A stretch of DNA of 64,000 bases from Escherichia coli (GTDB lineage Bacteria; Pseudomonadota; Gammaproteobacteria; Enterobacterales; Enterobacteriaceae): the NCBI RefSeq assembly GCF_013122565.1, contig NZ_CP053258.1. One strand, 5' to 3'. The notes below the pieces were generated by a model, which was given only the letters and a program-made list of their open reading frames with translations, was not told where the DNA came from and did not search any database. Below are positions 10,221-28,665 of this stretch, piece after piece (the stretch's first letter is position 1; each line of letters starts with the position of its first letter). The position numbers were made by a program, and so were the translations under genes.

Positions 10221-10223
10221 CCG

Positions 10224-11779: not shown

Positions 11780-11782
11780 CGC

Positions 11783-12064: not shown

Positions 12065-12561
12065 TGCCGGTAATTAACACGCATCAGAATATCGCGGCCT
12101 TTCTCGACATGCTGGCAGTGTCCGAAGGGACGGCGAATCATCCGCTGACGAAAAACCGGGGCTATGACGTGATAGTCACCGGACTGGACGGGAAGCCGGA
12201 AGTTTTCACCGACTACAGTGACCACCCGTTCGCGCATGGCCGACCGGCGAAGGTGTTTAACCGTCGCGGTGAAAAATCCACGGCCTCCGGTCGCTATCAG
12301 CAGCTTTACCTGTTCTGGCCGCACTACCGCAAACAGCTTGCCCTGCCGGATTTCAGTCCGCTGTCACAGGACAGGCTCGCCATTCAGTTGATCCGCGAAC
12401 GCGGTGCACTGGATGACATCCGGGCGGGACGCATTGAGCGCGCCATTTCACGCTGTCGCAATATCTGGGCGTCCCTGCCGGGTGCCGGTTACGGTCAGCG
12501 TGAGCATTCACTGGAAAAACTGGTCACCGTCTGGCGTACCGCTGGCGGCGTACCGGCTTAA
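12064..12561 (+). CDS. K: Endolysin (lysozyme)
   Basis: 165 aa, same length as P2 gpK; follows the holin. Confidence 0.85.
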   Translation: MPVINTHQNIAAFLDMLAVSEGTANHPLTKNRGYDVIVTGLDGKPEVFTDYSDHPFAHGRPAKVFNRRGEKSTASGRYQQLYLFWPHYRKQLALPDFSPLSQDRLAIQLIRERGALDDIRAGRIERAISRCRNIWASLPGAGYGQREHSLEKLVTVWRTAGGVPA

Positions 12562-12575
12562 ACGGAGTAAACACC

Positions 12576-13001
12576 ATGAAGAAATTATCCCTTTCACTGA
12601 TGCTGAACGTGTCGCTGGCGCTGATGCTGGCACTGTCCCTGATTTACCCGCAGAGCGTGGCCGTCAATTTTGTCGCCGCCTGGGCGATTCTGGCGACGGT
12701 TATCTGTGTGGTTGCCGGTGGTGTCGGCGTGTATGCCACTGAGTATGTGCTGGAACGCTACGGGCGGGAGCTGCCGCCGGAATCGCTGGCCGTGAAGATT
12801 GTCACGTCGCTGTTTTTGCAGCCGGTGCCGTGGCGCAGGCGGGCAGCGGCTCTGGTGGTGATGGTGGCGACATTTAGCTCGCTGGTCGCTGCCGGGTGGA
12901 TTTTTACTGCGCTGATTTACCTCGTGGCGTCGGTGTTCTTCCGGCTGATACGTACGGCCTGCCGTCAGCGTTTTGAGGGGCGGGAACCATGTCAAAGCTG
13001 A
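12576..13001 (+). CDS. lysA: Lysis timing/accessory membrane protein
   Basis: 141 aa, very hydrophobic with multiple TM helices; matches P2 LysA length and position. Confidence 0.8.
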   Translation: MKKLSLSLMLNVSLALMLALSLIYPQSVAVNFVAAWAILATVICVVAGGVGVYATEYVLERYGRELPPESLAVKIVTSLFLQPVPWRRRAAALVVMVATFSSLVAAGWIFTALIYLVASVFFRLIRTACRQRFEGREPCQS

Positions 13002-13414
13002 TGATTGTGCTGGTTGTATTGTTATCACTGGCGGTGGCGGGGCTGTTTCTGGTGAAGCATGAAAATGCCAGCCTGCGCACCTCACTGGACAGGGCGAACA
13101 GCGTCGCCAGCGGGCAGCAGACGACCATCACCATGCTGAAAAATCAGCTTCATGTTGCCCTCACCAGGGCAGACAAAAACGAGCTGGCGCAGGTGGCACT
13201 GCGTCAGGAACTGGAGAACGCCGCGAAGCGTGAAGCACTGCGCGAGAAAACCATCACGAGGTTACTTAATGAAAACGAGGATTTTCGCCGCTGGTATGGC
13301 GCTGACCTGCCTGATGCTGTGCGCCGGTTGCACCAGCGTCCGGCCTGCACTGACGCCAGTGATTGTCGCCAACGCCTGCCCGAAAGTGAGCCTTTGCCCG
13401 ATGCCGGGCAGTGA
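12989..13414 (+). CDS. lysB: Spanin inner-membrane subunit (Rz-like)
   Basis: 141 aa with N-terminal TM segment and coiled-coil-like body; matches P2 LysB. Confidence 0.8.
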   Translation: MSKLMIVLVVLLSLAVAGLFLVKHENASLRTSLDRANSVASGQQTTITMLKNQLHVALTRADKNELAQVALRQELENAAKREALREKTITRLLNENEDFRRWYGADLPDAVRRLHQRPACTDASDCRQRLPESEPLPDAGQ

Positions 13415-13559
13415 CCCGCAGAAGAACGGCGATTTAAGTGCCGATATCCGGCAGCTTGAGAACGCGCTGGCACGCTGTGCCAGCCAGGTAAAAATGATTA
13501 AACACTGTCAGGACGAAAACGATGCTCAAACCCGACAGCCTGCGCAGGGCGCTGACTGA
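13269..13559 (+). CDS. lysC: Spanin outer-membrane lipoprotein (Rz1-like), starts inside lysB in the +1 frame
   Basis: Internal start MKTRIFAAGMALTCLMLCAGC with lipobox LCAGC; 96 aa as for P2 LysC; begins within lysB and ends 145 nt after it. Confidence 0.7.
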   Translation: MKTRIFAAGMALTCLMLCAGCTSVRPALTPVIVANACPKVSLCPMPGSDPQKNGDLSADIRQLENALARCASQVKMIKHCQDENDAQTRQPAQGAD

Positions 13560-13989
13560 TGCCGTCACGGTGCTGAAAACCAGTCCCGAGATGCTGCGGA
13601 TATTCGTGGATAACGGGAGTATTGCCTCCACACTGGCGACGTCGTTGTCATTCGAAAAGCGTTACACGCTCAATGTGATTGTGACCGACTTTACCGGTGA
13701 TTTTGACCTGCTCATTGTGCCGGTGCTGGCGTGGCTGCGGGAAAATCAGCCCGACATCATGACCACTGACGAAGGTCAGAAAAAGGGCTTCACGTTTTAT
13801 GCAGACATCAACAATGACAGCAGCTTTGATATCAGCATCAGCCTGATGCTGACCGAGCGCACGCTGGTCAGTGAGGTTGACGGTGCGCTGCATGTGAAGA
13901 ATATCCCGGAACCTCCGCCGCCGGAGCCGGTTACCCGCCCGATGGAGCTGTATATCAATGGCGAACTGGTGAGCAAGTGGGATGAATGA
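13522..13989 (+). CDS. R: Tail completion protein
   Basis: 155 aa, same length and position as P2 gpR. Confidence 0.85.
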   Translation: MLKPDSLRRALTDAVTVLKTSPEMLRIFVDNGSIASTLATSLSFEKRYTLNVIVTDFTGDFDLLIVPVLAWLRENQPDIMTTDEGQKKGFTFYADINNDSSFDISISLMLTERTLVSEVDGALHVKNIPEPPPPEPVTRPMELYINGELVSKWDE

Positions 13990-14434
13990 GTTTAAGCGTT
14001 TTGAAGACCGGCTGACCGGACTGATTGAGTCGCTGTCACCGTCAGGGCGTCGACGACTGAGTGCCGAACTGGCGAAACGTCTGCGTCAGAGTCAGCAGCG
14101 TCGGGTGATGGCACAGAAAGCCCCGGACGGCACACCCTACGCGCCACGCCAGCAGCAGAGCGCCAGAAAAAAGACCGGTCGTGTTAAGCGAAAAATGTTT
14201 GCGAAACTTATCACCAGTCGCTTTTTGCATATCCGCGCCAGCCCGGAACAGGCATCAATGGAATTTTACGGCGGGAAGTCGCCGAAAATCGCCAGTGTGC
14301 ATCAGTTCGGTCTGTCGGAAGAAAACCGGAAAGACGGTAAGAAAATTGATTATCCGGCGCGTCCTCTGCTCGGCTTTACCGGTGAGGATGTGCAGATGAT
14401 TGAAGAGATTATTCTGGCTCACCTCGACCGTTAG
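13982..14434 (+). CDS. S: Tail completion protein
   Basis: 150 aa, same length and position as P2 gpS. Confidence 0.85.
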   Translation: MNEFKRFEDRLTGLIESLSPSGRRRLSAELAKRLRQSQQRRVMAQKAPDGTPYAPRQQQSARKKTGRVKRKMFAKLITSRFLHIRASPEQASMEFYGGKSPKIASVHQFGLSEENRKDGKKIDYPARPLLGFTGEDVQMIEEIILAHLDR

Positions 14435-14500
14435 TTGTGCCATTCCTGACACCTCATCGTCACATTGCCGCCGGTATGACCCGGCGGCATCCTTCCCGTT

Positions 14501-15136
14501 ATGAACACTCTCGCAAATATCCAGGAACTCGCGCGCGCACTGCGCAATATGATTCGCACCGGCCTTGTCGTCGAAACCGACCTTAACGCCGGTCGCTGCC
14601 GAGTGCAGACCGGCGGCATGTGCACTGACTGGCTTCAGTGGCTGACTCATCGCGCCGGGCGTTCGCGCACATGGTGGGCACCTTCCGTGGGGGAACAGGT
14701 GCTGATTCTGGCCGTGGGCGGTGAACTTGACACGGCGTTTGTTCTGCCGGGGATTTATTCCGGCGATAACCCCGCGCCGTCTGCGTCGGCGGATGCCCTG
14801 CATATCCGTTTCCCTGACGGGGCGGTGATTGAGTATGAACCCGAAACCAGTGCACTCACGGTAAGCGGAATTAAAACGGTCAGCGTGACGGCTTCTGATT
14901 CTGTTACTGCCACGGTGCCGGTGGTCATGGTGAAAGCGTCAACCCGCATCACCCTGGACACACCGGAGGTGGTCTGCACCAACAGGCTGATTACCGGCAC
15001 GCTGGAAGTGCAGAAGGGCGGGACGATGCGCGGCAACATTGAACACACCGGCGGTGAACTCTCATCAAACGGTAAGGTACTGCATACCCACAAACACCCC
15101 GGCGACAGCGGCGGCACAACCGGGAGTCCTTTATGA
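14501..15136 (+). CDS. V: Baseplate spike/central hub protein
   Basis: 211 aa, same length as P2 gpV; first gene of the V W J I H G operon. Confidence 0.85.
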   Translation: MNTLANIQELARALRNMIRTGLVVETDLNAGRCRVQTGGMCTDWLQWLTHRAGRSRTWWAPSVGEQVLILAVGGELDTAFVLPGIYSGDNPAPSASADALHIRFPDGAVIEYEPETSALTVSGIKTVSVTASDSVTATVPVVMVKASTRITLDTPEVVCTNRLITGTLEVQKGGTMRGNIEHTGGELSSNGKVLHTHKHPGDSGGTTGSPL

Positions 15137-15480
15137 CAGCTCGTTATCTCGGAATGAATCGCAGTAATGGCCTGACTGTCACTGACCTTGAGCATATCAG
15201 CCAGAGTATCGGCGATATCCTGCGTACACCGGTCGGCTCACGGGTGATGCGTCGTGATTACGGCTCGTTGCTGGCATCAATGATTGACCAGCCGCAGACC
15301 CCGGCGCTTGAGTTGCAGATTAAGGTCGCCTGTTACATGGCGGTGCTGAAATGGGAACCCCGCGTCACCCTGTCATCCGTCACCACGGCGCGCAGTTTTG
15401 ACGGGCGAATGACGGTCACGTTAACCGGCCAGCACAACGACACCGGCCAGCCACTTTCGTTAACCATCCCTGTGAGTTGA
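15133..15480 (+). CDS. W: Baseplate wedge protein (gp25-like)
   Basis: 115 aa, same as P2 gpW; start overlaps the V stop. Confidence 0.85.
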   Translation: MTARYLGMNRSNGLTVTDLEHISQSIGDILRTPVGSRVMRRDYGSLLASMIDQPQTPALELQIKVACYMAVLKWEPRVTLSSVTTARSFDGRMTVTLTGQHNDTGQPLSLTIPVS

Positions 15481-15484
15481 AACC

Positions 15485-16393
15485 ATGCCGATTATCGACC
15501 TGAACCAGCTACCCGCACCGGATGTGGTCGAGGAGCTGGACTTTGAAACCATTCTCGCCGAACGCAAGGCGACACTGATTTCCCTTTACCCGGAAGACCA
15601 GCAGGAGGCGGTCGCCCGTACCCTGACACTGGAATCTGAGCCTCTCGTCAAACTGCTGGAGGAAAATGCTTATCGTGAGCTTATCTGGCGTCAGCGTGTG
15701 AATGAGGCCGCACGGGCGGTGATGCTGGCTTGTGCCGCCGGTAATGACCTTGATGTGATTGGTGCCAATTACAACACCACGCGCCTGATTATCACCCCGG
15801 CAGATGATTCGACTATCCCGCCGACACCGGCAGTGATGGAGTCTGACACCGATTATCGTCTGCGTATTCAGCAGGCGTTTGAGGGCTTAAGCGTCGCCGG
15901 GTCGGTGGGAGCCTATCAGTATCATGGTCGCAGTGCTGACGGGCGTGTCGCGGATATTTCTGTCACCAGTCCGTCTCCGGCCTGCGTCACCATCTCTGTG
16001 CTGTCACGTGAAAATAACGGTGTTGCATCCGAAGACCTGCTGGCCGTGGTGCGTAACGCCCTTAATGGCGAGGACGTCAGGCCGGTGGCCGACCGCGTGA
16101 CCGTGCAGTCTGCCGCCATCGTTGAATACCAGATAAACGCCACGCTGTATCTTTACCCTGGTCCCGAAAGCGAACCCATTCGCGCTGCCGCCGTGAAAAA
16201 ACTGGAAGCGTATATCACGGCACAGCACCGGCTGGGGCGCGACATCCGTCTGTCTGCCATTTATGCCGCTTTGCATGTGGAAGGCGTGCAGCGTGTCGAA
16301 CTGGCTGCACCGCTGGCCGACATCGTGCTCAACAATACGCAGGCGTCTTTCTGTACCGAATACCGCGTCGTGACCGGAGGCTCGGATGAGTGA
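15485..16393 (+). CDS. J: Baseplate wedge protein
   Basis: 302 aa, same as P2 gpJ. Confidence 0.85.
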   Translation: MPIIDLNQLPAPDVVEELDFETILAERKATLISLYPEDQQEAVARTLTLESEPLVKLLEENAYRELIWRQRVNEAARAVMLACAAGNDLDVIGANYNTTRLIITPADDSTIPPTPAVMESDTDYRLRIQQAFEGLSVAGSVGAYQYHGRSADGRVADISVTSPSPACVTISVLSRENNGVASEDLLAVVRNALNGEDVRPVADRVTVQSAAIVEYQINATLYLYPGPESEPIRAAAVKKLEAYITAQHRLGRDIRLSAIYAALHVEGVQRVELAAPLADIVLNNTQASFCTEYRVVTGGSDE

Positions 16394-16997
16394 TTCGCGA
16401 CTGCTGCCGACCGGCTCATCACCGCTTGAAGTCGCCGCCGCAAAAGCCTGTGCGGAAATTGAAAAAACGCCGGTCAGTATTCGTGAGCTGTGGAACCCGG
16501 ATACCTGTCCGGCAAATCTGCTGCCGTGGCTGGCGTGGTCATTTTCGGTTGACCGCTGGGATGATAAGTGGCCGGAAGCGACAAAACGCGCTGTTATCCG
16601 CGATGCGTATTTCATTCACTGCCATAAGGGCACTATAGGCGCAATCCGGCGTGTGGTGGAGCCGCTCGGCTATCTGATTGAGGTAAGGGAGTGGTGGCAG
16701 CTCAACGAGGAGCCGGGGACGTTCCGTATCGTTGTTGGTGTGCTTGAGCAGGGTATTACCGAGGAAATGTATCAGGAGCTGGAGCGCCTCGTTGCTGATG
16801 CAAAACCGGCAAGCCGCCATCTGACGGGACTGGCTATCAGCTTAAGTACAACCGGCAACATTTTTGCCGGTGCGGGATGCTATCACGGCGACGCCCTGAC
16901 GGTTTATCCCTACACCCCGGAGGCCATTATTGTCGGAGGGGATTATTTCCCGGCCTCGGCCATTCATTTAATTGATAACCTGAGAGTAAACGCATGA
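16386..16997 (+). CDS. I: Baseplate protein
   Basis: 203-aa ORF in the gpI position (P2 gpI is 176 aa, so the true start may be internal). Confidence 0.75.
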   Translation: MSDSRLLPTGSSPLEVAAAKACAEIEKTPVSIRELWNPDTCPANLLPWLAWSFSVDRWDDKWPEATKRAVIRDAYFIHCHKGTIGAIRRVVEPLGYLIEVREWWQLNEEPGTFRIVVGVLEQGITEEMYQELERLVADAKPASRHLTGLAISLSTTGNIFAGAGCYHGDALTVYPYTPEAIIVGGDYFPASAIHLIDNLRVNA

Positions 16998-18331
16998 CAG
17001 TGAAATACTACGCCATTCTGACTAATCAGGGCGCAGCACGGCTGGCTAACGCGACGATGCTCGGCAGTAAGCTGAATCTGACGCAAATGGCCGTTGGTGA
17101 TGCGAATGGTGTCTTGCCGACACCAGACCCGGCACAGACAAAACTGATTAACCAGAAACGCATCGCGCCGCTGAATCTTCTGAGTGTTGACCCGAACAAC
17201 CAGAGCCAGATTATTGCGGAGCAAATCATCCCTGAGAACGAGGGCGGATTCTGGATCCGTGAGATTGGGCTTTATGATGATGAAGGCGTACTCATTGCGG
17301 TGGCGAACTGCCCGGAAACGTACAAACCGCAGTTGCAGGAAGGCAGTGGTCGTACCCAGACTATCCGCATGATTCTGGTTGTCACGAATACCGAAGCTAT
17401 CACGCTGAAAATCGACCCGTCGGTGGTACTGGCGACCCGTAAATACGTGGATGATGAAGTCCTGGAATTAAGGCTGTATGTGGATGACCAGATGAGCAAA
17501 CACATTGCCGCACAGGACCCTCATACCCAGTATGCACAGAAACATAATCCGACATTTACCGGAGAACCAAAAGCGCCGACGCCTGCCGCAGGAAATAACA
17601 CCACGCGGATTGCGACCACTGAGTTTGTTCAGGCCGCTATTACCGCTCTGATTAACGGCGCGCCAGCCACGCTGGACACACTGAAAGAAATTGCCGCAGC
17701 CATTAACAATGACCCGAAATTCAGTACCACCATTAACAATGCGCTGTCAGGTAAGCAGCCACTGGATGAGACGCTGACGCATTTGAGCGGAAAGGATGTT
17801 GCCGGTCTTCTCGCATACCTTGGTTTGGGAGAAGGTTCGGCATTACCCGTTGGTGTGCCTGTTCCGTGGCCTTCAGCCACACCGCCTACTGGCTGGCTGA
17901 AATGCAACGGTGCGGCTTTTTCTGCTGAAGAATACCCGGAACTGGCAAAGGTTTATCCGACAAATAAATTGCCTGATTTACGCGGTGAATTTATTCGTGG
18001 CTGGGATGACGGGCGTGGAGTGGATAGCGGTCGTACTTTATTAACGAATCAAGAGCATGCAGTAATTTCTCATAATCATGGAATACCTACAAAAGTGGGG
18101 TCAGTTACTAATATCCCGTATGGAATAGAACAGGTTATATCTGATGAAACCATTTTTTCATCAGCAAAAACAGTTGGTGTGGATTACTGGTCTAACAGTG
18201 AAAGAGTTTTTACTTATACAACTGGTGGAAGAAATGGTGCTGAATCAGTGAGTTCACCTGATGCCTCCTCTTTAATTAAAGAAACCAGACCACGGAACCT
18301 GGCATTTGCGTATATCGTGAGGGCTGCATAA
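16994..18331 (+). CDS. H: Tail fibre protein: constant N-terminal part plus currently expressed variable C-terminal part
   Basis: 445 aa in the gpH position. A gix-like crossover site lies inside the gene at 17808..17833, so residues after about 277 belong to the invertible segment. Confidence 0.85.
   Translation: MTVKYYAILTNQGAARLANATMLGSKLNLTQMAVGDANGVLPTPDPAQTKLINQKRIAPLNLLSVDPNNQSQIIAEQIIPENEGGFWIREIGLYDDEGVLIAVANCPETYKPQLQEGSGRTQTIRMILVVTNTEAITLKIDPSVVLATRKYVDDEVLELRLYVDDQMSKHIAAQDPHTQYAQKHNPTFTGEPKAPTPAAGNNTTRIATTEFVQAAITALINGAPATLDTLKEIAAAINNDPKFSTTINNALSGKQPLDETLTHLSGKDVAGLLAYLGLGEGSALPVGVPVPWPSATPPTGWLKCNGAAFSAEEYPELAKVYPTNKLPDLRGEFIRGWDDGRGVDSGRTLLTNQEHAVISHNHGIPTKVGSVTNIPYGIEQVISDETIFSSAKTVGVDYWSNSERVFTYTTGGRNGAESVSSPDASSLIKETRPRNLAFAYIVRAA
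17808..17833. other. gix/hix-like invertase crossover site (left), inside H
   Basis: TTCTCGCATACC TT GGTTTGGGAGAA: 12-2-12 layout with the same half-site style as hixL from memory, and an inverted match to the right site. Confidence 0.6.
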
Positions 18332-18933
18332 TGGATTACGCCGTATTAAATAACGAGTTTATCGCCACCCAGGCAGGAAATATTACTGTTTATAACTATG
18401 ATGGTGAAACGCGTGAATATATTTCTACATCAACTGAATATCTCGCTGTCGGCGTCGGTATTCCGGCATGTTCTTGTTTGGATGCACCAGGTACACATAA
18501 AGCTGGTTATGCAATCTGTCGCTCTGTAGATTTAAATTCATGGGAATATGTGCCAGACCATCGCGGTGAAATCGTCTATAGCACCGAAACAGGAGAATCG
18601 AAAGAAATCACAGCTCCGGGTGATTATCCTGAAAATACAACCACTATCGCCCCGTTAACGCCATACGATGAATGGAATGGTGAGAAATGGGTGACAGATA
18701 CTGAGGCACAGCATAGTGCCGCAGTAGACGCGGCAGAAGCACAGCGCCAGTCGCTGATTGATGCTGCAATGGCTTCCATCAGTCTGATTCAACTGAAATT
18801 ACGGGCCGGGCGGAAGCTGACGCAGCCAGAAAACACCCGACTTAACGCCGTGCTGGATTACATTGACGCGGTGACGGCAACAGATACCAGCACCGCACCG
18901 GATGTCATCTGGCCTGAACTGCCGGAGGCGTAG
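18331..18933 (+). CDS. G: Tail fibre assembly chaperone (expressed orientation)
   Basis: 200 aa, gpG position; C-terminal motif TSTAPDVIWPELPE typical of tail fibre assembly proteins. Confidence 0.8.
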   Translation: MDYAVLNNEFIATQAGNITVYNYDGETREYISTSTEYLAVGVGIPACSCLDAPGTHKAGYAICRSVDLNSWEYVPDHRGEIVYSTETGESKEITAPGDYPENTTTIAPLTPYDEWNGEKWVTDTEAQHSAAVDAAEAQRQSLIDAAMASISLIQLKLRAGRKLTQPENTRLNAVLDYIDAVTATDTSTAPDVIWPELPEA

Positions 18934-19345
18934 GCCATTCAATATCTGGAGCACTGGAGGAATCAACCAGTTCCAGTGCGTCCAGATAATCTAGCCATAA
19001 ATTATATTGCGCCAGTTCCTCACCTTTCAGACGACCAATCGCCGCTTTACCAGGCCATTGCTTACTGTTTATGTATTCGTTGACCTGATTAATCAATTGC
19101 TGCTTTTCCAATTCGGCTGCGGCAATTTGTTCCTCATGAGTTGGCGGTGGAATATCAATCCATGCAGGCATTCCGTCGATGACACCTCTGTATTTTCCTT
19201 CTGGTGCTTCCTTCATAAATTCGGCGGCAACAGTGTCGTCAATTTCGATTCCATCATCGGGCCATTCGCCGGATTCCTGATAAGCGATTTTAAGCTCCAC
19301 AGGGAAAAACGCATTTTTATCGGCACTGAAAATATATTTCTGCAT
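18905..19345 (-). CDS. Alternative tail fibre assembly chaperone (G'), silent in this orientation
   Basis: 146 aa, convergent with G and overlapping its 3' end; C-terminal motif SSAPDIEWPTPP; lies inside the invertible segment. Confidence 0.75.
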   Translation of the reverse strand: MQKYIFSADKNAFFPVELKIAYQESGEWPDDGIEIDDTVAAEFMKEAPEGKYRGVIDGMPAWIDIPPPTHEEQIAAAELEKQQLINQVNEYINSKQWPGKAAIGRLKGEELAQYNLWLDYLDALELVDSSSAPDIEWPTPPAVQAR

Positions 19346-19347
19346 TT

Positions 19348-19746
19348 CTACCGTCCTATCGAAATATAACTGAATCTGTATTGCTGTGAGATATCACTGG
19401 TTGCCACACGCCACGCTGAATTACTGATATGTTCAAAATTTACAGACAAAACCTGCGGGGCAGGAATCGACGGGTCTGACTGAACGGCATCAGACATAAC
19501 ACTGACTGAAACCATCGGCTGATTAGGGAATGGTATAGGGAAGTGTCCACTGATAAAGCGGGTCGTGTTTCCTGAAAAAGTGCCAAACTGAACAATATAT
19601 CCACCTGGTAGCCTGAACCATCCCGAACCAGAAGCGAATGCTCCCATATCCGGTATCTGATTATCTCCTGTGCCCACATCCCTTTTCGCCGCTTCTCCCA
19701 AACCAACGTTTATGAAAATGCAGAGATAACGGGCAACTGGCATCAT
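19348..19746 (-). CDS. Alternative tail fibre C-terminal cassette (H'), expressed only after inversion by fusion to the constant part of H
   Basis: The minus-strand frame encodes GLGEAAKRDVGTGDNQ..., which is in frame with the GLGE of H across the shared 14-bp crossover sequence; the functional part is about 19348..19706. Confidence 0.7.
   Translation of the reverse strand: MMPVARYLCIFINVGLGEAAKRDVGTGDNQIPDMGAFASGSGWFRLPGGYIVQFGTFSGNTTRFISGHFPIPFPNQPMVSVSVMSDAVQSDPSIPAPQVLSVNFEHISNSAWRVATSDISQQYRFSYISIGR
19693..19718. other. gix/hix-like invertase crossover site (right), about 50 bp upstream of the invertase gene
   Basis: TTCTCCCAAACC AA CGTTTATGAAAA; its reverse complement shares TTGGTTTGGGAGAA with the left site. 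The sites bound an invertible segment of about 1.9 kb (17820..19706). Confidence 0.6.
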
Positions 19747-19767
19747 CTCCGGTTTTTATTCAGGGGG

Positions 19768-20367
19768 ATGCTCATGCTTATTGGCTATGTACGCGTGTCA
19801 ACAAATGACCAGAACACGGAATTGCAGCGTAACGCGCTGGAGTGCGCAGGATGCGAGCGGATTTTTGAGGATAAAATCAGCGGCACGAAGTCCGACCGAC
19901 CGGGACTGAAAAAACTGCTCAGAACATTATCAGCAGGTGACACTCTGGTAGTCTGGAAGCTGGACCGGCTGGGGCGTAGTATGCGGCATCTGGTCATTCT
20001 GGTTGAGGAGCTGCGCGAACGCGGCGTTAATTTTCGCAGCCTGACAGATGCTATTGATACCAGCACGCCGATGGGGCGTTTTTTCTTTCATGTGATGGGT
20101 GCCCTGGCTGAAATGGAGCGAGAACTCATTGTCGAGCGGACACGCGCCGGACTGGAAGCGGCCAGAGCCAAAGGGCGTATTGGTGGCAGACGTCCGAAGC
20201 TCACCGCGAGTGAGTGGGAACAGGCAGGACGGTTGCTGGCTGCGGGTGAATCACGTCAACGCGTGGCGCTGATTTTTGATATTGGCCTGTCCACGCTCTA
20301 TAAAAAATTCCCCTCATCAGCGGCAAAGAATAAATTGTGTCATCCCTTAGCCAACCGGGACAAATAG
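19768..20367 (+). CDS. Serine DNA invertase (Hin/Gin/Cin/Pin family)
   Basis: 199 aa; N-terminal catalytic motif GYVRVSTNDQ with the active-site serine; C-terminal helix-turn-helix; immediately next to the invertible tail-fibre segment. Confidence 0.85.
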   Translation: MLMLIGYVRVSTNDQNTELQRNALECAGCERIFEDKISGTKSDRPGLKKLLRTLSAGDTLVVWKLDRLGRSMRHLVILVEELRERGVNFRSLTDAIDTSTPMGRFFFHVMGALAEMERELIVERTRAGLEAARAKGRIGGRRPKLTASEWEQAGRLLAAGESRQRVALIFDIGLSTLYKKFPSSAAKNKLCHPLANRDK

Positions 20368-20426
20368 CCTGACATCTCCGGCACAACTGAAAATATCACT
20401 CACCCATTAACCACGGAGTTAAACGG

Positions 20427-21617
20427 ATGAGTGACTATCATCACGGCGTGCAGGTGCTGGAGATTAACGACGGCACCCGCGTCATTTCCACCGTATCCAC
20501 TGCCATTGTTGGCATGGTCTGCACGGCCAGCGATGCGGATGCGGAAACCTTCCCCCTCAATAAACCGGTGCTGATTACCAATGTGCAGAGCGCAATTGCA
20601 AAGGCCGGTAAAAAAGGCACGCTGGCGGCATCGTTGCAGGCCATCGCCGACCAGTCAAAACCGGTCACCGTTGTCGTGCGTGTGGAAGATGGCACCGGTG
20701 ACGACGAGGAAACGAAACTCGCGCAGACCGTTTCCAATATCATCGGCACCACCGACGAAAACGGTCAGTACACCGGACTGAAAGCCCTGCTGGCGGCGGA
20801 GTCGGTAACCGGTGTTAAACCGCGCATTCTCGGTGTGCCGGGACTGGACACCAAAGAGGTGGCTGTTGCACTGGCATCAGTCTGTCAGAAGCTGCGCGCT
20901 TTCGGGTATATCAGCGCATGGGGCTGTAAAACCATTTCCGAGGTGAAAGCCTACCGCCAGAATTTCAGCCAGCGTGAGCTGATGGTCATCTGGCCGGATT
21001 TCCTCGCATGGGATACGGTCACCAGTACCACCGCCACCGCGTATGCCACCGCCCGTGCGCTGGGTCTGCGCGCTAAAATCGACCAGGAGCAGGGCTGGCA
21101 TAAAACGCTGTCCAACGTTGGGGTGAACGGTGTTACCGGCATCAGCGCCTCTGTATTCTGGGATTTGCAGGAGTCCGGCACCGATGCTGACCTGCTTAAC
21201 GAGTCAGGCGTCACAACGCTGATTCGCCGTGACGGTTTCCGCTTCTGGGGTAACCGTACCTGCTCTGATGACCCGCTGTTCCTCTTTGAAAACTACACCC
21301 GCACCGCGCAGGTGCTGGCCGACACGATGGCTGAGGCGCACATGTGGGCGGTGGACAAGCCCATCACCGCAACGCTGATTCGCGACATCGTTGACGGCAT
21401 CAATGCCAAATTCCGTGAGCTGAAAACAAACGGCTATATCGTGGATGCGACCTGCTGGTTCAGCGAAGAATCCAACGATGCGGAAACCCTCAAGGCCGGA
21501 AAACTGTATATCGACTACGACTATACCCCGGTGCCTCCTCTCGAAAACCTGACCCTGCGCCAGCGTATTACCGATAAATACCTGGCAAATCTGGTCACTT
21601 CGGTTAACAGCAATTAA
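20427..21617 (+). CDS. FI: Tail sheath protein
   Basis: 396 aa, same as P2 gpFI. Confidence 0.9.
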   Translation: MSDYHHGVQVLEINDGTRVISTVSTAIVGMVCTASDADAETFPLNKPVLITNVQSAIAKAGKKGTLAASLQAIADQSKPVTVVVRVEDGTGDDEETKLAQTVSNIIGTTDENGQYTGLKALLAAESVTGVKPRILGVPGLDTKEVAVALASVCQKLRAFGYISAWGCKTISEVKAYRQNFSQRELMVIWPDFLAWDTVTSTTATAYATARALGLRAKIDQEQGWHKTLSNVGVNGVTGISASVFWDLQESGTDADLLNESGVTTLIRRDGFRFWGNRTCSDDPLFLFENYTRTAQVLADTMAEAHMWAVDKPITATLIRDIVDGINAKFRELKTNGYIVDATCWFSEESNDAETLKAGKLYIDYDYTPVPPLENLTLRQRITDKYLANLVTSVNSN

Positions 21618-21629
21618 GGAGCCTGACCG

Positions 21630-22148
21630 ATGGCAATGCCGCGCAAACTCAAGTTAATGAACGTCTTTCTGAACGGCTACAGCTATCAGGGCGTCGCGAA
21701 GTCCGTCACGCTACCAAAACTGACCCGTAAGCTCGAAAACTATCGCGGTGCGGGGATGAACGGCAGCGCACCGGTAGACCTCGGCCTTGATGACGATGCG
21801 CTGTCAATGGAGTGGTCGCTCGGTGGCTTCCCGGATTCGGTTATCTGGGAGCTTTACGCCGCAACCGGTGTGGATGCCGTACCGATTCGTTTTGCAGGTT
21901 CTTACCAGCGCGACGATACCGGCGAAACGGTGGCCGTCGAGGTGGTCATGCGTGGACGTCAGAAAGAAATCGACACCGGCGAGGGCAAACAGGGAGAAGA
22001 CACCGAGTCGAAAATCTCCGTGGTCTGCACCTATTTCCGGCTGACGATGGACGGTAAGGAGCTGGTCGAAATCGACACCATCAACATGATTGAGAAGGTG
22101 AACGGCGTCGACCGGCTGGAGCAACACCGCCGCAATATCGGCCTGTGA
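21630..22148 (+). CDS. FII: Tail tube protein
   Basis: 172 aa, same as P2 gpFII. Confidence 0.9.
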   Translation: MAMPRKLKLMNVFLNGYSYQGVAKSVTLPKLTRKLENYRGAGMNGSAPVDLGLDDDALSMEWSLGGFPDSVIWELYAATGVDAVPIRFAGSYQRDDTGETVAVEVVMRGRQKEIDTGEGKQGEDTESKISVVCTYFRLTMDGKELVEIDTINMIEKVNGVDRLEQHRRNIGL

Positions 22149-22204
22149 TTTTCATCCGGTCAGCCTGGCTGACCGGTTAACCCCGATTCAGAAGTGAGAA
22201 AACC

Positions 22205-22480
22205 ATGAACAAAGAAAACGTCATTACCCTGGACAATCCGGTCAAACGTGGTGAGCAGGTTATCGAACAGGTCACGCTGATGAAACCCAATGCCGGGACG
22301 CTGCGCGGTGTCAGTCTGGCTGCGGTCGCAAACTCCGAAGTCGATGCACTGATTAAAGTGCTGCCGCGCATGACGGCACCGATGCTGACCGAGCAGGAGG
22401 TCGCCGCGCTGGAACTGCCTGACCTTGTGGCGCTGGCCGGTAAGGTGGTCGGTTTTTTGTCGCCGAACTCGGTGCAGTGA
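22205..22480 (+). CDS. E: Tail assembly chaperone E
   Basis: 91 aa, same as P2 gpE; sits just before the tape measure gene. Confidence 0.85.
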   Translation: MNKENVITLDNPVKRGEQVIEQVTLMKPNAGTLRGVSLAAVANSEVDALIKVLPRMTAPMLTEQEVAALELPDLVALAGKVVGFLSPNSVQ

Positions 22481-22632
22481 CGTTTCCGAAAAATCTGTCG
22501 GTCGATGACCTGATGGCGGATGTGGCAGTGATATTTCACTGGCCGCCATCAGAACTGTATCCCATGAGCCTGACCGAACTCATCACATGGCGCGAAAAGG
22601 CGCTCCGGCGAAGCGGAAACACGAATGAGTAA
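22205..22632 (+). CDS. E+E': Tail assembly chaperone E+E', made by programmed -1 frameshift at the slippery heptamer T_TTT_TTG (22453..22459)
   Basis: The heptamer lies 7 codons before the E stop. The -1 frame then runs 57 codons to TAA at 22630..22632, overlapping the T start; the extension ends ...LTELITWREKALRRSGNTNE. Predicted fusion of about 142 aa, as in P2. Confidence 0.7.
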
Positions 22633-25072
22633 CAATGTAAAATTACAGGTATTGCTCAGGGCTGTTGACCAGGCATCCCGCCCGTTTAAATCCATCCGCA
22701 CAGCGAGCAAATCGCTGTCGGGGGATATCCGGGAAACACAAAAATCACTGCGCGAGCTGAACGGTCAGGCATCCCGTATTGAGGGATTTCGCAAGACAAG
22801 TGCACAGCTCGCCGTGACTGGTCATGCACTTGAAAAGGCTCGGCAGGAAGCCGAAGCCCTTGCCACACAGTTTAAAAACACCGAACGTCCGACCCGTGCT
22901 CAGGCGAAAGTGCTGGAATCCGCAAAGCGTGCGGCGGAGGACTTACAGGCGAAATATAACCGCCTGACGGATTCCGTTAAACGCCAGCAGCGGGAACTGG
23001 CCGCTGTGGGAATTAATACCCGCAATCTTGCACATGATGAGCAGGGACTGAAAAACCGTATCGGTGAAACCACTGCACAGCTTAACCGTCAGCGTGATGC
23101 GCTGGCGCGTGTCAGTGCGCAACAGGCAAAACTTAACGCAGTAAAACAGCGTTATCAGGCCGGAAAGGAACTGGCCGGAAATATGGCCTCAGTGGGCGCT
23201 GCCGGTGTGGGGATTGCGGCGGCGGGAACGATGGCCGGAGTTAAGCTGCTGATGCCCGGTTATGAGTTTGCGCAGAAAAACTCAGAATTACAGGCTGTGC
23301 TCGGAGTGGCAAAAGACTCCACCGAAATGGCCGCACTACGCAAACAGGCGCGTCAGCTTGGCGACAATACCGCCGCCTCGGCAGATGATGCAGCCGGTGC
23401 GCAGATTATTATTGCGAAAGCCGGTGGGGATGTTGATGCCATTCAGGCGGCAACGCCGGTCACGCTGAATATGGCGCTGGCGAACCGTCGCACGATGGAA
23501 GAAAACGCTGCCCTGCTGATGGGGATGAAATCCGCCTTTCAGCTTTCAAACGATAAGGTCGCTCATATCGGGGATGTTCTCTCCATGACGATGAACAAAA
23601 CCGCCGCCGATTTTGACGGTATGAGCGATGCGCTGACCTATGCTGCACCTGTGGCAAAAAATGCCGGTGTCAGCATTGAAGAAACCGCCGCAATGGTCGG
23701 AGCGCTGCATGATGCAAAAATCACAGGCTCAATGGCGGGGACGGGAAGCCGTGCCGTGTTAAGTCGCCTGCAGGCACCGACGGGAAAAGCATGGGATGCA
23801 CTCAAAGAGCTTGGCGTGAAAACCTCAGACAGTAAGGGAAACACCCGACCAGTATTTACCATTCTGAAAGAAATGCAGGCCAGTTTTGAGAAAAACCGGC
23901 TCGGTACTGCCCAGCAGGCTGAATACATGAAAACCATTTTCGGGGAGGAAGCCAGCTCAGCCGCCGCCGTGCTGATGACTGCCGCCTCAACCGGAAAGCT
24001 GGACAAACTGACCGCTGCGTTTAAAGCCTCAGACGGGAAGACCGCCGAGCTGGTAAATATCATGCAGGACAACCTCGGCGGTGACTTTAAGGAGTTTCAG
24101 TCCGCTTATGAGGCGGTGGGGACTGACCTGTTTGACCAGCAGGAAGGCGCACTGCGTAAGCTCACGCAGACGGCCACAAAGTATGTGTTAAAACTCGACG
24201 GCTGGATCCAGAAAAACAAATCACTGGCGTCAACCATCGGCATCATTGTCGGTGGTGCACTGGCACTGACTGGTGTCATCGGTGCCATTGGCCTCGTAGC
24301 CTGGCCGGTTATCACCGGCATCAATGCCATCATCGCGGCAGCAGGCGCAATGGGGGCAATCTTCACGACGGTTGGCAGTGCTGTTATGACGGCCATCGGG
24401 GCGATTAGCTGGCCGGTTGTGGCCGTGGTGGCCGCAATTGTCGCCGGGGCGTTGCTTATCCGTAAATACTGGGAGCCTGTCAGCGCATTCTTTGGCGGTG
24501 TGGTTGAAGGGCTGAAAGCGGCATTTGCGCCAGTGGGGGAACTGTTCACGCCACTTAAGCCGGTGTTTGACTGGCTGGGTGAAAAGTTACAGGCCGCGTG
24601 GCAGTGGTTTAAAAACCTGATTGCCCCGGTTAAAGCCACTCAGGACACCCTGAACAGTTGCCGTGACACGGGGGTCATGTTCGGGCAGGCACTGGCTGAC
24701 GCGCTGATGCTGCCGCTTAATGCGTTCAACAAACTGCGCAGCGGAATTGACTGGGTACTGGAAAAACTCGGTGTTATCAACAAAGAGTCAGACACACTTG
24801 ACCAGACCGCCGCCAGAACTCAAGCCGCCACGTATGGCAGCGGTGGTTATATTCCGGCGACCAGCTCTTATGCAGGCTATCAGGCTTATCAGCCGGTCAC
24901 GGCACCGGCTGGCCGCTCTTATGTGGACCAGAGTAAAAACGAATATCACATCAGCCTGACGGGTGGTACTGCGCCGGGGACACAGCTTGACCGCCAGTTA
25001 CAGGATGCGCTCGAAAAATACGAGCGGGATAAACGTGCGCGCGCCCGTGCCAGCATGATGCATGACGGTTAA
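22625..25072 (+). CDS. T: Tail tape measure protein
   Basis: 815 aa, same as P2 gpT; alanine/glycine-rich with hydrophobic central segments. Confidence 0.9.
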   Translation: MSNNVKLQVLLRAVDQASRPFKSIRTASKSLSGDIRETQKSLRELNGQASRIEGFRKTSAQLAVTGHALEKARQEAEALATQFKNTERPTRAQAKVLESAKRAAEDLQAKYNRLTDSVKRQQRELAAVGINTRNLAHDEQGLKNRIGETTAQLNRQRDALARVSAQQAKLNAVKQRYQAGKELAGNMASVGAAGVGIAAAGTMAGVKLLMPGYEFAQKNSELQAVLGVAKDSTEMAALRKQARQLGDNTAASADDAAGAQIIIAKAGGDVDAIQAATPVTLNMALANRRTMEENAALLMGMKSAFQLSNDKVAHIGDVLSMTMNKTAADFDGMSDALTYAAPVAKNAGVSIEETAAMVGALHDAKITGSMAGTGSRAVLSRLQAPTGKAWDALKELGVKTSDSKGNTRPVFTILKEMQASFEKNRLGTAQQAEYMKTIFGEEASSAAAVLMTAASTGKLDKLTAAFKASDGKTAELVNIMQDNLGGDFKEFQSAYEAVGTDLFDQQEGALRKLTQTATKYVLKLDGWIQKNKSLASTIGIIVGGALALTGVIGAIGLVAWPVITGINAIIAAAGAMGAIFTTVGSAVMTAIGAISWPVVAVVAAIVAGALLIRKYWEPVSAFFGGVVEGLKAAFAPVGELFTPLKPVFDWLGEKLQAAWQWFKNLIAPVKATQDTLNSCRDTGVMFGQALADALMLPLNAFNKLRSGIDWVLEKLGVINKESDTLDQTAARTQAATYGSGGYIPATSSYAGYQAYQPVTAPAGRSYVDQSKNEYHISLTGGTAPGTQLDRQLQDALEKYERDKRARARASMMHDG

Positions 25073-25086
25073 GGAGGTGACGAAAA

Positions 25087-25566
25087 ATGATGCTCGCGTT
25101 AGGTATGTTTGTTTTTATGCGCCAGACGCTGCCACACCAGACCATGCAGCGTGAATCAGATTATCGCTGGCCGTCAAATTCCCGTATCGGTAAACGGGAT
25201 GCCTTTCAGTTTCTCGGTGTTGGCGAGGAAAACATCACGCTTGCCGGTGTGCTTTATCCCGAACTGACCGGCGGAAAGCTGACGATGACCACGCTCAGGC
25301 TGATGGCAGAGGAAGGTCGGGCGTGGCCGTTGCTGGATGGCACTGGCATGATTTACGGCATGTATGTCATCAGCAGGGTGAGTGAAACAGGGAGTATTTT
25401 CTTTGCAGACGGCACACCCCGGAAAATTGATTTTACGCTGTCGCTCACCCGCGTTGATGAATCACTGGCCGCACTTTATGGCGATATCGGTAAACAGGCG
25501 GAATCGCTCATCGGTAAGGCTGGCAGTATGGCGACTAAATTCACGGGTATGACGGGGGCGGGATAA
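25087..25566 (+). CDS. U: Tail protein U
   Basis: 159 aa, same as P2 gpU. Confidence 0.85.
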   Translation: MMLALGMFVFMRQTLPHQTMQRESDYRWPSNSRIGKRDAFQFLGVGEENITLAGVLYPELTGGKLTMTTLRLMAEEGRAWPLLDGTGMIYGMYVISRVSETGSIFFADGTPRKIDFTLSLTRVDESLAALYGDIGKQAESLIGKAGSMATKFTGMTGAG

Positions 25567-26729
25567 TGCTGGATGCGCTGACATTTGATGCAGGCAGTAC
25601 ACTGACGCCGGATTACATGCTGATGCTCGACAGCAGGGATATTACCGGCAATATCAGCGACCGTCTGATGAGCATGACCCTGACGGATAACCGGGGCTTT
25701 GAGGCTGACCAGCTTGATATTGAACTGAACGACGCCGACGGGCAGGTAGGGCTACCGGTTCGTGGCGCTGTCCTGACGGTGTATATCGGCTGGAAAGGTT
25801 TTGCCCTGGTATGCAAAGGGAAATTTACCGTTGATGAGGTTGAACACCGGGGCGCACCGGATGTGGTCACCATCCGCGCCCGGAGTGCAGATTTTCGCGG
25901 GACGCTCAATTCCCGCCGGGAAGGCTCCTGGCATGACACCACGCTCGGTGCGATTGTTGAGGCGATAGCCACCCGTAACAGGCTGGAAGCCAGTGTCGCT
26001 CCGTCACTGGCCGGAATTAAAATCCCGCACATCGACCAGTCGCAGGAGTCCGATGTGAAATTCCTGACCCGTCTTGCTGAACGCAACGGCGGCGAGGTGT
26101 CGGTAAAAATGGGAAAACTGCTGTTTCTCAAAGCGGGGCAGGGGGTGACGGCCAGTGGTAAAAAAATCCCGCAGATCACCATCACCCGCAGCGACGGTGA
26201 CCGTCATCATTTTGCGATTGCTGACCGTGGAGCCTATACCGGCGTAACGGCAAAGTGGTTACACACCAAAGACCCGAAACCGCAAAAGCAGAAGGTAAAA
26301 CTGAAACGCAAAAAGAAAGAAAAACACCTGCGCGCACTGGAGCACCCGAAAGCGAAACCAGTCAGGCAGAAGAAAGCGCCAAAAGTACCGGAAGCGCGCG
26401 AAGGTGAATACATGGCCGGTGAGGCTGACAACGTTTTTGCCCTGACCACGGTATATGCCACGAAAGCGCAGGCCATGCGCGCCGCTCAGGCGAAGTGGGA
26501 CAAACTGCAACGGGGTGTGGCGGAGTTCTCCATCAGCCTGGCTACTGGTCGGGCAGATATTTACACGGAAACGCCGGTCAAAGTGTCAGGCTTTAAGCGC
26601 GTCATAGACGAGCAGGACTGGACAATCACTAAGGTGACACATTTTCTGAATAATAGCGGCTTCACGACGTCCTTAGAGCTTGAGGTAAGGCTTTCTGATG
26701 TGGAGTACGAAACCGAAGATGATGAGTGA
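25566..26729 (+). CDS. D: Tail protein D (late control gene D)
   Basis: 387 aa, same as P2 gpD; lysine-rich internal segment. Confidence 0.85.
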   Translation: MLDALTFDAGSTLTPDYMLMLDSRDITGNISDRLMSMTLTDNRGFEADQLDIELNDADGQVGLPVRGAVLTVYIGWKGFALVCKGKFTVDEVEHRGAPDVVTIRARSADFRGTLNSRREGSWHDTTLGAIVEAIATRNRLEASVAPSLAGIKIPHIDQSQESDVKFLTRLAERNGGEVSVKMGKLLFLKAGQGVTASGKKIPQITITRSDGDRHHFAIADRGAYTGVTAKWLHTKDPKPQKQKVKLKRKKKEKHLRALEHPKAKPVRQKKAPKVPEAREGEYMAGEADNVFALTTVYATKAQAMRAAQAKWDKLQRGVAEFSISLATGRADIYTETPVKVSGFKRVIDEQDWTITKVTHFLNNSGFTTSLELEVRLSDVEYETEDDE

Positions 26730-26811
26730 TGTGTTTTATTTTATCTGTTTGTTTTATAAGGATAAATTAACTAAAATGGCAACATCAACAAAACCGGAAG
26801 AGGTGCTCGCG

Positions 26812-27030
26812 ATGTTTCATTGTCCTTTATGCCAGCATGCCGCACATGCGCGTACAAGTCGCTATATCACTGACACGACAAAAGAGCGTTATCACCAGTG
26901 TCAGAACGTGAATTGCAGCGCCACGTTCATCACTTATGAGTCTGTACAGCGATACATTGTGAAGCCGGGAGAAGTCCACGCCGTGAGGCCGCACCCGTTG
27001 CCGTCAGGGCAGCAAATTATGTGGATGTAA
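26812..27030 (+). CDS. ogr: Ogr zinc-finger late-gene transcriptional activator
   Basis: Internal start MFHCPLCQHAAHAR gives 72 aa as for P2 Ogr; CxxC...CxxxxC zinc-finger cysteines; last phage gene before att. Confidence 0.85.
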   Translation: MFHCPLCQHAAHARTSRYITDTTKERYHQCQNVNCSATFITYESVQRYIVKPGEVHAVRPHPLPSGQQIMWM

Positions 27031-27043
27031 TTACAAACAGAAA

Positions 27044-27068
27044 GCCCCTCAGTCGAGGGGCTTTTTTT
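27044..27068 (+). terminator. Rho-independent terminator after ogr
   Basis: GCCCCTC-AGTC-GAGGGGC hairpin followed by a run of seven T, 14 nt past the ogr stop. Confidence 0.7.
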
Positions 27069-27132
27069 GTCGATGTGGTCAATGTGTGGACGTGACCAGA
27101 AATAAATCCTTTTATTTCAATTTGTTGTACGT

Positions 27133-27159
27133 AAAAAATAAGCCCGTGTAAGGGAGATT
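27133..27159. other. Prophage attR core (P2 att core)
   Basis: AAAAAATAAGCCCGTGTAAGGGAGATT, the 27-nt P2 attP/attB core from memory; it coincides with the 3' end of cyaR and marks the prophage/host junction. Confidence 0.55.
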
Positions 27160-27219
27160 ACACAGGCTAAGGAGGTGGTTCCTGGTACAGCTAGCATTTT
27201 ATGGGTTATGTTTTTCAGC
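27133..27219 (-). ncRNA. cyaR: CyaR (RyeE) Hfq-dependent sRNA
   Basis: Minus-strand sequence GCUGAAAAACAUAACCCAUAAAAUGCUAGCUGUACCAGGAACCACCUCCUUAGCCUGUGUAAUCUCCCUUACACGGGCUUAUUUUUU (87 nt) matches CyaR from memory, including the terminator hairpin; position between yegQ and ogr as in K-12. Confidence 0.75.
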
Positions 27220-27303: not shown

Positions 27304-28665
27304 TCACTTACCGTGGGGGTTACGCGTGGTTTCCCCGGAGAAATTACGCATCAGCAGCGCGTAATTCAGTTCAAGATCCTGCGGTACCGGGATCCAAACA
27401 GTATAACCATCGCCAGGTGCGACCGGCATAGCTTCACCTTTGGCGTTTTCCATGTGCTCAAGGGTAAAGTTAATGTTGCCTTGCGGCGTCATCAGCTCGA
27501 GGCTGTCGCCAACGGAGAATTTATTTTTCACCGCTACCGCCGCGAGGTCCCCCTTGCGCTCACCGGTAAACTCACCAACAAACTGCTGGCGGTCAGAAAC
27601 CGAATAACCGTATTCGTAGTTCTGATAATCGTCGTGAGTATGACGACGCAGGAAACCTTCGGTATAGCCACGATGCGCCAGACCTTCCAGAGTTTCCAGC
27701 AGGCTGGTATCGAACGGTTTGCCCGCAGCGGCATCATCGATAGCTTTGCGATAAACCTGCGCGGTGCGTGCGCAATAGTAGAAAGATTTGGTACGGCCTT
27801 CGATTTTCAGCGAATGCACGCCCATTTTGGTCAGGCGTTCAACATGGGCGATGGCGCGCAGATCTTTCGAGTTCATGATGTAAGTGCCGTGCTCATCTTC
27901 AAACGCGGTCATATACTCGCCCGGACGCTGGGCTTCTTCGATCATAAACACTTTGTCGGTTGGCGCGCCGATACCCAGCGTCGGCTCAACATTTTGCACC
28001 GGAATCGGCTCGTACTTGTGTACGATGTTGCCAACGTCATCTTCTTTCCCTTCCTGGACGTTGTACTCCCAGCGGCAGGCGTTGGTGCAGGTACCCTGGT
28101 TCGGGTCGCGCTTGTTGATATAGCCAGAGAGCAGGCAGCGACCGGAGTAGGCCATGCACAGTGCGCCGTGAACGAAGATCTCGATCTCCATATCCGGCAC
28201 CTGATTGCGGATCTCTTCAATCTCTTCCAGCGACAGCTCGCGAGAGAGGATCACGCGGGTCAGGCCCATTTGCTGCCAGAATTTCACCGTCGCCCAGTTT
28301 ACGGCGTTAGCCTGCACCGAGAGGTGGATCGGCATTTCAGGGAAGTGCTCACGCACCAGCATAATCAACCCCGGATCGGACATAATCAGCGCATCCGGCC
28401 CCATCTCCACCACCGGTTTCAGGTCACGGATAAAGGTTTTCAGCTTGGCGTTGTGCGGGGCAATGTTGACCACGACATAAAACTTTTTCCCCAGCGCGTG
28501 GGCTTCATTGATGCCGAGCTGAAGATTTTCGTGGTTGAATTCGTTGTTGCGCACACGCAGGGAGTAACGCGGCTGGCCCGCATAAACAGCATCTGCGCCA
28601 TAAGCGAAAGCGTAACGCATATTTTTCAGCGTTCCCGCCGGGGAAAGGAGTTCCGGTTTAAACAT
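27304..28665 (-). CDS. yegQ: U32-family peptidase-like protein YegQ
   Basis: 453 aa, same length as K-12 YegQ; conserved position next to cyaR. Confidence 0.9.
   Translation of the reverse strand: MFKPELLSPAGTLKNMRYAFAYGADAVYAGQPRYSLRVRNNEFNHENLQLGINEAHALGKKFYVVVNIAPHNAKLKTFIRDLKPVVEMGPDALIMSDPGLIMLVREHFPEMPIHLSVQANAVNWATVKFWQQMGLTRVILSRELSLEEIEEIRNQVPDMEIEIFVHGALCMAYSGRCLLSGYINKRDPNQGTCTNACRWEYNVQEGKEDDVGNIVHKYEPIPVQNVEPTLGIGAPTDKVFMIEEAQRPGEYMTAFEDEHGTYIMNSKDLRAIAHVERLTKMGVHSLKIEGRTKSFYYCARTAQVYRKAIDDAAAGKPFDTSLLETLEGLAHRGYTEGFLRRHTHDDYQNYEYGYSVSDRQQFVGEFTGERKGDLAAVAVKNKFSVGDSLELMTPQGNINFTLEHMENAKGEAMPVAPGDGYTVWIPVPQDLELNYALLMRNFSGETTRNPHGK

Follow-up and report, generated by a model that had tools for sequence, protein, structure and literature searches.

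A P2-type prophage junction inside the small RNA gene cyaR of Escherichia coli

The window analysed here is a stretch of 64,000 nucleotides from an Escherichia coli genome (contig NZ_CP053258.1), and its left part is prophage DNA. Similarity to P2-like phages, which reaches up to 88% coverage at 96-97% identity, and alignment to the prophage of E. coli NZ_OZ197100 delimit the right-hand ~27 kb of a P2-type prophage (1..27132, plus strand), comprising gene A, a cargo gene, Q-P-O-N-M-L, the lysis and tail genes, D, ogr and the P arm. Gene A (1-2268) forms the left part of the prophage in the window, and the cargo gene and the portal, terminase, capsid, lysis and tail genes come after it. Toward the right end, the ORF list gives gene D (tail/late control D; 25566..26729, plus strand), whose product shows 100% amino-acid identity to the NZ_OZ197100 D protein. 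It is followed by ogr (26812..27030, plus strand), the gene of the late-gene activator, whose 72-aa translation is 100% identical to the copy at locus L001 and is annotated as OgrK in matching genomes. Beyond ogr lies the ogr/F-operon terminator hairpin (27041..27064, plus strand), which corresponds to the P2 annotation at 24265-24288 and of which the terminator scan gives the minus-strand face. The P arm then contains, in the last 90 bases ahead of the core, two putative protein-binding regions assigned by their equivalence to P2. The predicted Int arm-type binding site, TCGATGTGGTCAATGTGTGGACGTGACC (27070..27097, plus strand), is identical to the P2 'Int P arm' at 24293-24320, and the predicted IHF-binding region (27101..27134, plus strand) is the position-for-position equivalent of the P2 IHF site at 24324-24357, with one base different.

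On the other side of the junction lies the gene for CyaR (RyeE), an Hfq-binding small RNA for which cAMP-CRP dependent transcription and a ~87-nt transcript ending in a U tract are expected. The Rfam model CyaR_RyeE (RF00112) matches positions 27136-27221 on the minus strand with 100.7 bits, against a gathering score of 47, and over model positions 1-85 of 85. The intact cyaR (ryeE) gene occupies 27133..27219 on the minus strand; this interval equals the 87-nt CyaR beginning at GCUGAAAAAC, and the minus strand reads ...AGGAACCACCUCCUUAGCCUGUGUAAUCUCCCUUACACGGGCUUAUUUUUU. According to the consensus alignment, the folds and the terminator scan, the first hairpin with its conserved loop AACCACCUCC, the target-pairing region, is present, and a Rho-independent terminator ending in a U tail comes after it. 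This intrinsic terminator (27141..27168, minus strand), on which the terminator scan, the fold and the Rfam structure line agree, has 11 pairs and the loop UCUCCC. The scan reads the hairpin as AGCCTGTGTAA/TCTCCC/TTACACGGGCT from 27168 to 27141, then TATTTTTT, and UAUUUUUU occupies 27140-27133. The fold has an energy of -15.9 kcal/mol (z = -5.6). The gene adjoins yegQ (trhP; 27304..28665, minus strand), a bacterial 453-aa ORF annotated yegQ/trhP in all matching genomes, and this order is identical in all fetched E. coli loci. Many non-lysogenic E. coli agree with the window at 100% identity over 27132-27300, so cyaR is unaltered by the insertion. A shortening of the U tail by integration (6 T at attR and 7 T at the empty site of strain M23917) was considered and rejected because both alleles are common among non-lysogens, whose matches begin at query position 133 or 134, corresponding to the 6-T and 7-T alleles; the attL of NZ_OZ197100 also has 6 T. 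On its antisense face, the ogr terminator (27041-27064) also resembles a terminator, at a distance of 77 nt downstream from the CyaR U tract. Read-through of the CyaR terminator was 41% in a plasmid assay (PMC9765468), and this face may therefore be where transcripts that run past CyaR stop, both in lysogens and in K-12.

The two sides meet at the 27-mer AAAAAATAAGCCCGTGTAAGGGAGATT, which has a single exact occurrence in the window, at 27133-27159 on the plus strand. A second match was found neither in the 64-kb window at up to three mismatches nor in 100 shuffles. The earlier note had named the 27-mer as the P2 att core, and all 27 bases do agree with the attP core that the P2 record AF063097 places at 24356-24382, around which the annotated Int, IHF and Cox sites are arranged in P2. 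P2 similarity stops at 27159; of 5,423 matching genomes, the great majority show bacterial similarity from 27132/27133 onward. On the exact unique match, the P2 annotation and these similarity break points, 27133..27159 (no strand assigned) was designated the attR core, common to the phage attP and the bacterial attB (P2 locI). A five-way alignment of attR, attP, attL, the unoccupied attB of M23917 and the K-12 site gives the expected recombinant arms around an invariant core. The combination of an exact and unique 27-mer, a full-length CyaR and a terminator hairpin at these positions rules out a chance match. The prophage junction lies inside cyaR, and we assign 27133-27159 with high confidence to attR, the ogr-proximal end of a P2-type prophage that occupies locI, the classical site in E. 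coli.

The core had also been described as coinciding with the 3' hairpin and U tail of CyaR on the opposite strand. Its reverse complement, AAUCUCCCUUACACGGGCUUAUUUUUU, does run through the loop, the complete 3' arm and the U tract, and takes in no more than the last two bases of the 5' arm. Because the 5' arm is outside the core, the statement that the core supplies the terminator overstates the overlap. The core was also tried as a terminator for int and discarded, as the fold of the attP strand lacks a convincing hairpin ahead of the U tract (z = -1.4). In the attL fold, the sole pairing, GGGCUUAU/AUAAGCCC, extends across the U tract.

The second core copy is absent from the window because the prophage runs past its left edge. 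About 3.7 kb of prophage, with the early genes, cox, C, int and attL, is outside the window, and by extrapolation from NZ_OZ197100 the attL of the window prophage should be ~3.7 kb to the left of position 1. NZ_OZ197100 aligns to window positions 1-27300 as a single piece at 99.92% identity. Its annotation, which lists all P2 genes, gives the order yegQ, ogrK, D, all genes for tail and head, the cargo ATPase also present in the window, A, the B-region genes, cox, C and a site-specific integrase, and it contains two exact 27-mers 30,805 bp apart, the far copy directly adjoining int. The encoded Int is identical to P2 Int at 336/337 residues and carries Phage_integrase and Int_N domains (PF00589, PF24624). 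Because the window does not reach attL, int, C or cox, the completeness and excision competence of the window prophage rest on this proxy genome. For the same reason, one might regard the junction as that of a dead remnant as in K-12, in which case the site would be the scar of a former lysogen, not the junction of a present one. K-12 demonstrates that remnants persist at the cyaR site, and decayed remnants are found at cyaR in other genera. However, the window holds 27 kb of contiguous P2 gene order with long intact ORFs from gene A to ogr, and its single alignment is to a prophage having int, C, cox, B, A and both exact cores. We therefore consider a dead remnant improbable and treat the site as the junction of a current lysogen.

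The use of this site in the species was surveyed in 5,426 complete E. coli genomes, 5,423 of which match the cyaR/yegQ side. In ~4,250 of the 5,426, similarity to the window is lost exactly at the core edge. The P2-type arm and the ogr end are contiguous with cyaR in 1,170 (22%), the K-12 remnant included, and the match reaches through gene D in 752 genomes. Strain NDM5 has a different P2 relative at the same core; its D and ogr genes have diverged, and a cargo gene for a peptidase separates ogr from the arm. The P2-type arm being joined to cyaR in 1,170 of 5,426 genomes, the site has been used repeatedly, and the second P2 relative in NDM5 agrees with the repeated use by P2-like phages proposed in the earlier note. 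The note had also attributed only a decayed P2 remnant to K-12; K-12 lineages have only a 213-bp D fragment, ogrK and attR at the site. The unoccupied site of strain M23917 has the order yegR - core - cyaR - yegQ. The comparison with the empty site of a non-lysogen, suggested as a check, thus finds the same exact 27-mer inside cyaR. With this 27-mer in the unoccupied gene, and with a full-length CyaR overlapping the core in the window, the proposal that integration uses the 3' end of a small RNA gene as attB is borne out.

We infer the recombination chemistry from established knowledge of P2 Int, IHF and Cox. P2 Int, a heterobivalent tyrosine recombinase, would bind the arm sites at 27070-27097 and the core, while IHF would bend the DNA at 27101-27134. 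Strands would then be exchanged between the identical 27-bp cores of attP and attB. As the phage brings its own copy of the 27-mer, cyaR would be rebuilt at attR, and integration would restore the gene unchanged. A copy of the core without promoter or 5' arm would remain beside int at attL, outside the window.

To view the site beyond E. coli, a CyaR 3'-half pattern was scanned over one genome per bacterial species and gave at least 120 loci across Enterobacterales. The segment AAUCUCCCUU of the loop is invariant among these loci because the search pattern fixes it. Among the matches listed, and in the Rfam consensus, the stem of the CyaR terminator varies by compensatory substitutions. In some hosts other than E. 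coli, the U tract is succeeded, with unchanged spacing, by a P2-type arm made up of an IHF-like AT tract, GTCCACACATTGACCACATCGA and a terminator, in this order. Among the matches listed, the hosts with such an arm are E. albertii, Enterobacter sp. Bisph1, Citrobacter youngae, Citrobacter sp. R56 and Salmonella diarizonae, the last with a diverged form. Some of the loci with P2-type arms beyond E. coli (L008, L009, L027, L033, L053 and L098) have ogr, D or int fragments, and two strains of C. youngae have ogr and D homologues with 62-73% amino-acid identity. The core matches the stem of the host's own cyaR in Citrobacter, Enterobacter and E. albertii, where ACGCAGGC replaces ACACGGGC. The phage collection contained no isolated phage with a ACGCAGGC-type core, its best matches being P2 relatives at 81-83%. 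A separate case is L094, a 9.7-kb contig (JAIJJM010000051.1) of a 'Collinsella' MAG, which has the E. coli cyaR and a P2 prophage end whose ogr and D are identical to those of the window at 100% and 98%. The contig almost certainly entered the bin as a contaminant.

These loci bear on whether the RNA gene matters to the phage at all. The site may have been chosen as a conserved, harmless intergenic sequence, with the RNA hairpin irrelevant to recognition and the overlap with cyaR incidental. The core holds one hairpin arm only, so the terminator dyad is not inside the 27-mer, and attP has no equivalent hairpin (z = -1.4). In addition, P2-type integrases mostly insert between genes and not in tRNA genes (Nilsson & Haggard-Ljungquist 2011, PMC3448106). 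On the other hand, the core tracks the local cyaR stem in Citrobacter, Enterobacter and E. albertii, which is expected if the conservation of the RNA gene makes the site usable. We judge an incidental overlap to be a possible explanation of appreciable weight, though the less probable one. The tracking of the stem bears on the persistence of the site and not on how Int reads it, and the two views overlap.

The same loci give indications on where the strands are exchanged. A second, attL-like copy of the core was found at three of them (L008, L009 and L027), in E. albertii, Enterobacter and C. youngae. The copy is TATCCCCCTTACGCAGGCTTATTTTTT at +3,369 in E. albertii, AAAGGCCCTTACGCAGGCTGATTTTTT at +2,158 in Enterobacter and AAACGCACTTACGCAGGCTTATTTTTT at +7,120 in C. 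youngae, where it lies beside int fragments. In all three, identity between the attL and attR copies is confined to the 20-22 nt of the 3' arm and U tail, and the loop part differs. Tyrosine recombinases require identity across the exchanged overlap region. Since the attL/attR pairs agree only in the 3' arm/U-tail block, the crossover would be located within this block of the terminator. The 5' arm and loop of CyaR would then be bacterial, and at most the last ~20 nt would be phage-derived. Because attP equals attB across the core, the CyaR bases that are physically phage-derived are not readable from the sequence. The earlier note had called the terminator half of CyaR in a lysogen formally phage-derived; a phage origin is possible for the 3' arm and U tail, up to ~20 nt, and would not extend to the 5' arm and loop.

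The K-12 remnant adds a hint on the position of the exchange. At its left junction, ...ATAAGCCCGTGTA|GCAGAGTTC... (L004 2440-2560), the attL core meets a stretch of gene D that resembles the core, GGGGTGTGGCGGAGTT, and the two share a GTGT microhomology in which the junction falls. This may point to an Int-mediated deletion at a pseudo-att site in D, with the exchange at the central GTGTA. If the exchange occurs within GTGTAAG (27146-27152), only GGGCUUAUUUUUU of CyaR would be derived from the phage. The searchable literature yielded nothing usable on the P2 Int cleavage sites or overlap region.

The unoccupied site in E. coli has a history of its own. In M23917, the bacterial arm to the left of the core reads TCGATGTGGTCAATGG..GGTTACCAGAGATA and includes a 15-base exact run to the P2 Int arm site; a P-arm-like bacterial arm of this type was found in 5,249 of 5,426 genomes. 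The relic of the Int arm site next to the core is seen at L003 2431-2500. In E. coli E69 (CP089930) and in E. whittamii, the yegS promoter and start codon are within ~10 bases of the cyaR U tract, and in K-12 the yegS-promoter sequence is 1,429 bp from cyaR. There, TCCTCCATACTTGAACTGACTTTTT stands before it and agrees with the core in 16/25 positions. The simplest reading of these sequences suggests that the 'attB' of E. coli is the attR of a much older P2-like element, which would now be reduced to ~800 bp including yegR. The possibility that yegR was a phage cargo gene was examined and dropped, as its tblastn matches are confined to two records, evidently with host flank or a K-12-type remnant. 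YegR belongs to phrog_21109, and this family may derive from such host-flank records.

Such an ancient junction raises the reverse ancestry, in which the CyaR terminator would itself be phage DNA recruited by the sRNA. Nearly all 'empty' sites of E. coli are flanked by the P-arm relic TCGATGTGGTCAATGG...GGTTACCAGAGATA, by yegR and by a decayed core next to the yegS promoter, and thus even unoccupied sites in this species resemble old attR junctions. However, in Photorhabdus, Serratia, Yersinia, Dickeya, Pectobacterium, Rahnella and other genera showing no P2 arm, cyaR terminates in the same hairpin, with compensatory changes in the stem and the AAUCUCCCUU loop segment kept constant by the search pattern. 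In addition, the unscarred cyaR-yegS sites of E. coli E69 and E. whittamii have the same terminator, which is also part of the Rfam consensus. The covarying conservation in genera without the P2 arm and the unscarred Escherichia sites contradict a phage origin of the terminator, and we regard it as the least credible of the alternatives, with hardly any probability left to it. A broader reading of the locus joins a fossil attR at nearly all 'empty' E. coli sites to P2-like integrases that have tracked the cyaR terminator through at least four genera, their cores matching the local stem, and to exchange in the 3' arm. We propose the combination tentatively, at slightly less than an even chance of being right as a whole. 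No statement of these three points (the fossil attR, the following across genera and the 3'-arm exchange) was found in the searchable literature.

We take the site to be P2 locI with its 27-bp core, and the K-12 remnant (ogrK, yegZ) to be the one described by the Stockholm P2 group. P2 attP and locI were reportedly characterized by Yu, Bertani and Haggard-Ljungquist in 1989, and the K-12 remnant is said to have been treated by Barreiro and Haggard-Ljungquist in 1992, the work of the Stockholm P2 group dating from 1989-1992. Compared with P2 at locI, the core and the proposed Int P-arm site are identical, the putative IHF region is one base off and the position by yegQ is the same. Nothing essential is different; the window prophage is a P2 relative at 96-97% nucleotide identity that has a cargo gene of its own and an apparently invertible tail-fibre segment. 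Bobay, Rocha and Touchon 2013 (PMC3603311) give ryeE in E. coli as a previously known phage target, with reference to Wassarman et al. 2001; the gene and the targeting statement are the same as ours. In the searchable literature, this indirect record was the only one found to connect cyaR or ryeE with P2. A P2 junction in cyaR is thus already known and has been in the literature since 2001.

Other RNA genes serve as attachment sites in comparable ways. The ryeB/sdsR locus of Salmonella is an integration hot spot according to Balbontin et al. 2008, as cited in PMC3603311 and PMC3333887. It shares with cyaR the use of an sRNA gene as attachment site and repeated use in evolution, but it concerns another sRNA, other phages and a bidirectional sRNA locus. 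Among the 3' ends of tRNA and tmRNA genes, phage 186 targets tRNA-Ile, HP1 tRNA-Leu and Fels-2/SopEPhi ssrA (PMC3448106). Nilsson and Haggard-Ljungquist 2011 (PMC3448106) set out how P2-like integrases behave in general and how long cores restore tRNA genes, and the prophages PhiESP and PhiKPN at tRNA-Met share a segment of 50-110 bp with their target (PMC3448106). As in those cases, the element at cyaR belongs to the P2-like phage family and carries the displaced 3' segment, so that the RNA gene is rebuilt. In contrast, cyaR encodes an Hfq-binding regulatory RNA, and the segment is a terminator half, not an acceptor or T arm; with 27 bp it is shorter than the 50-110 bp of PhiESP and PhiKPN. 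The Rfam scan suggested no tRNA or tmRNA at the cyaR site. Because its target is an Hfq-dependent sRNA, the locus falls outside the tRNA-targeting class, though it works alike. The analogy to tRNA-targeting integrases drawn in the earlier note holds in that the displaced 3' segment is restored, 27132-27300 being 100% identical to non-lysogens. The interpretation given there is supported overall, with a refinement of the part of CyaR that the phage supplies.

The junction adds nothing to the published record and offers a clean textbook case, in which the conserved 3' end of a regulatory RNA is a safe landing site and the gene is rebuilt upon insertion. It explains why P2 DNA flanks cyaR in K-12. 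Annotators should place the boundary of the prophage inside cyaR and still call the gene intact. The proposed fossil element, the cores that vary with the host stem and the hint on the exchange position are modest extras for the evolution of integrase specificity.

Several other features of the window were noted. In the variable region of P2 between gene A and the portal gene, the prophage encodes a 739-aa AAA ATPase (2516-4735, minus strand), which the NZ_OZ197100 prophage has as well. The protein matches the PADLOC candidate defence family PDC-S06 (E = 4e-253), its C-terminal part is PrrC-like, and it is probably the product of an anti-phage cargo gene. A serine recombinase/invertase gene (19768-20367, plus strand) lies beside oppositely oriented alternative tail-fibre/assembly ORFs (18905-19746, minus strand), and 18331-20367 looks like an invertible host-range segment; to our knowledge, phage P2 itself has no such segment. 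In the bacterial part, three tandem Sib antitoxin RNAs are encoded at 41313-42118 on the minus strand (Rfam SIB_RNA, 141-150 bits each), where K-12 presumably has two copies (sibA and sibB). A JUMPstart element at 58054-58092 on the plus strand (57 bits) presumably precedes the colanic-acid (wza) gene cluster.
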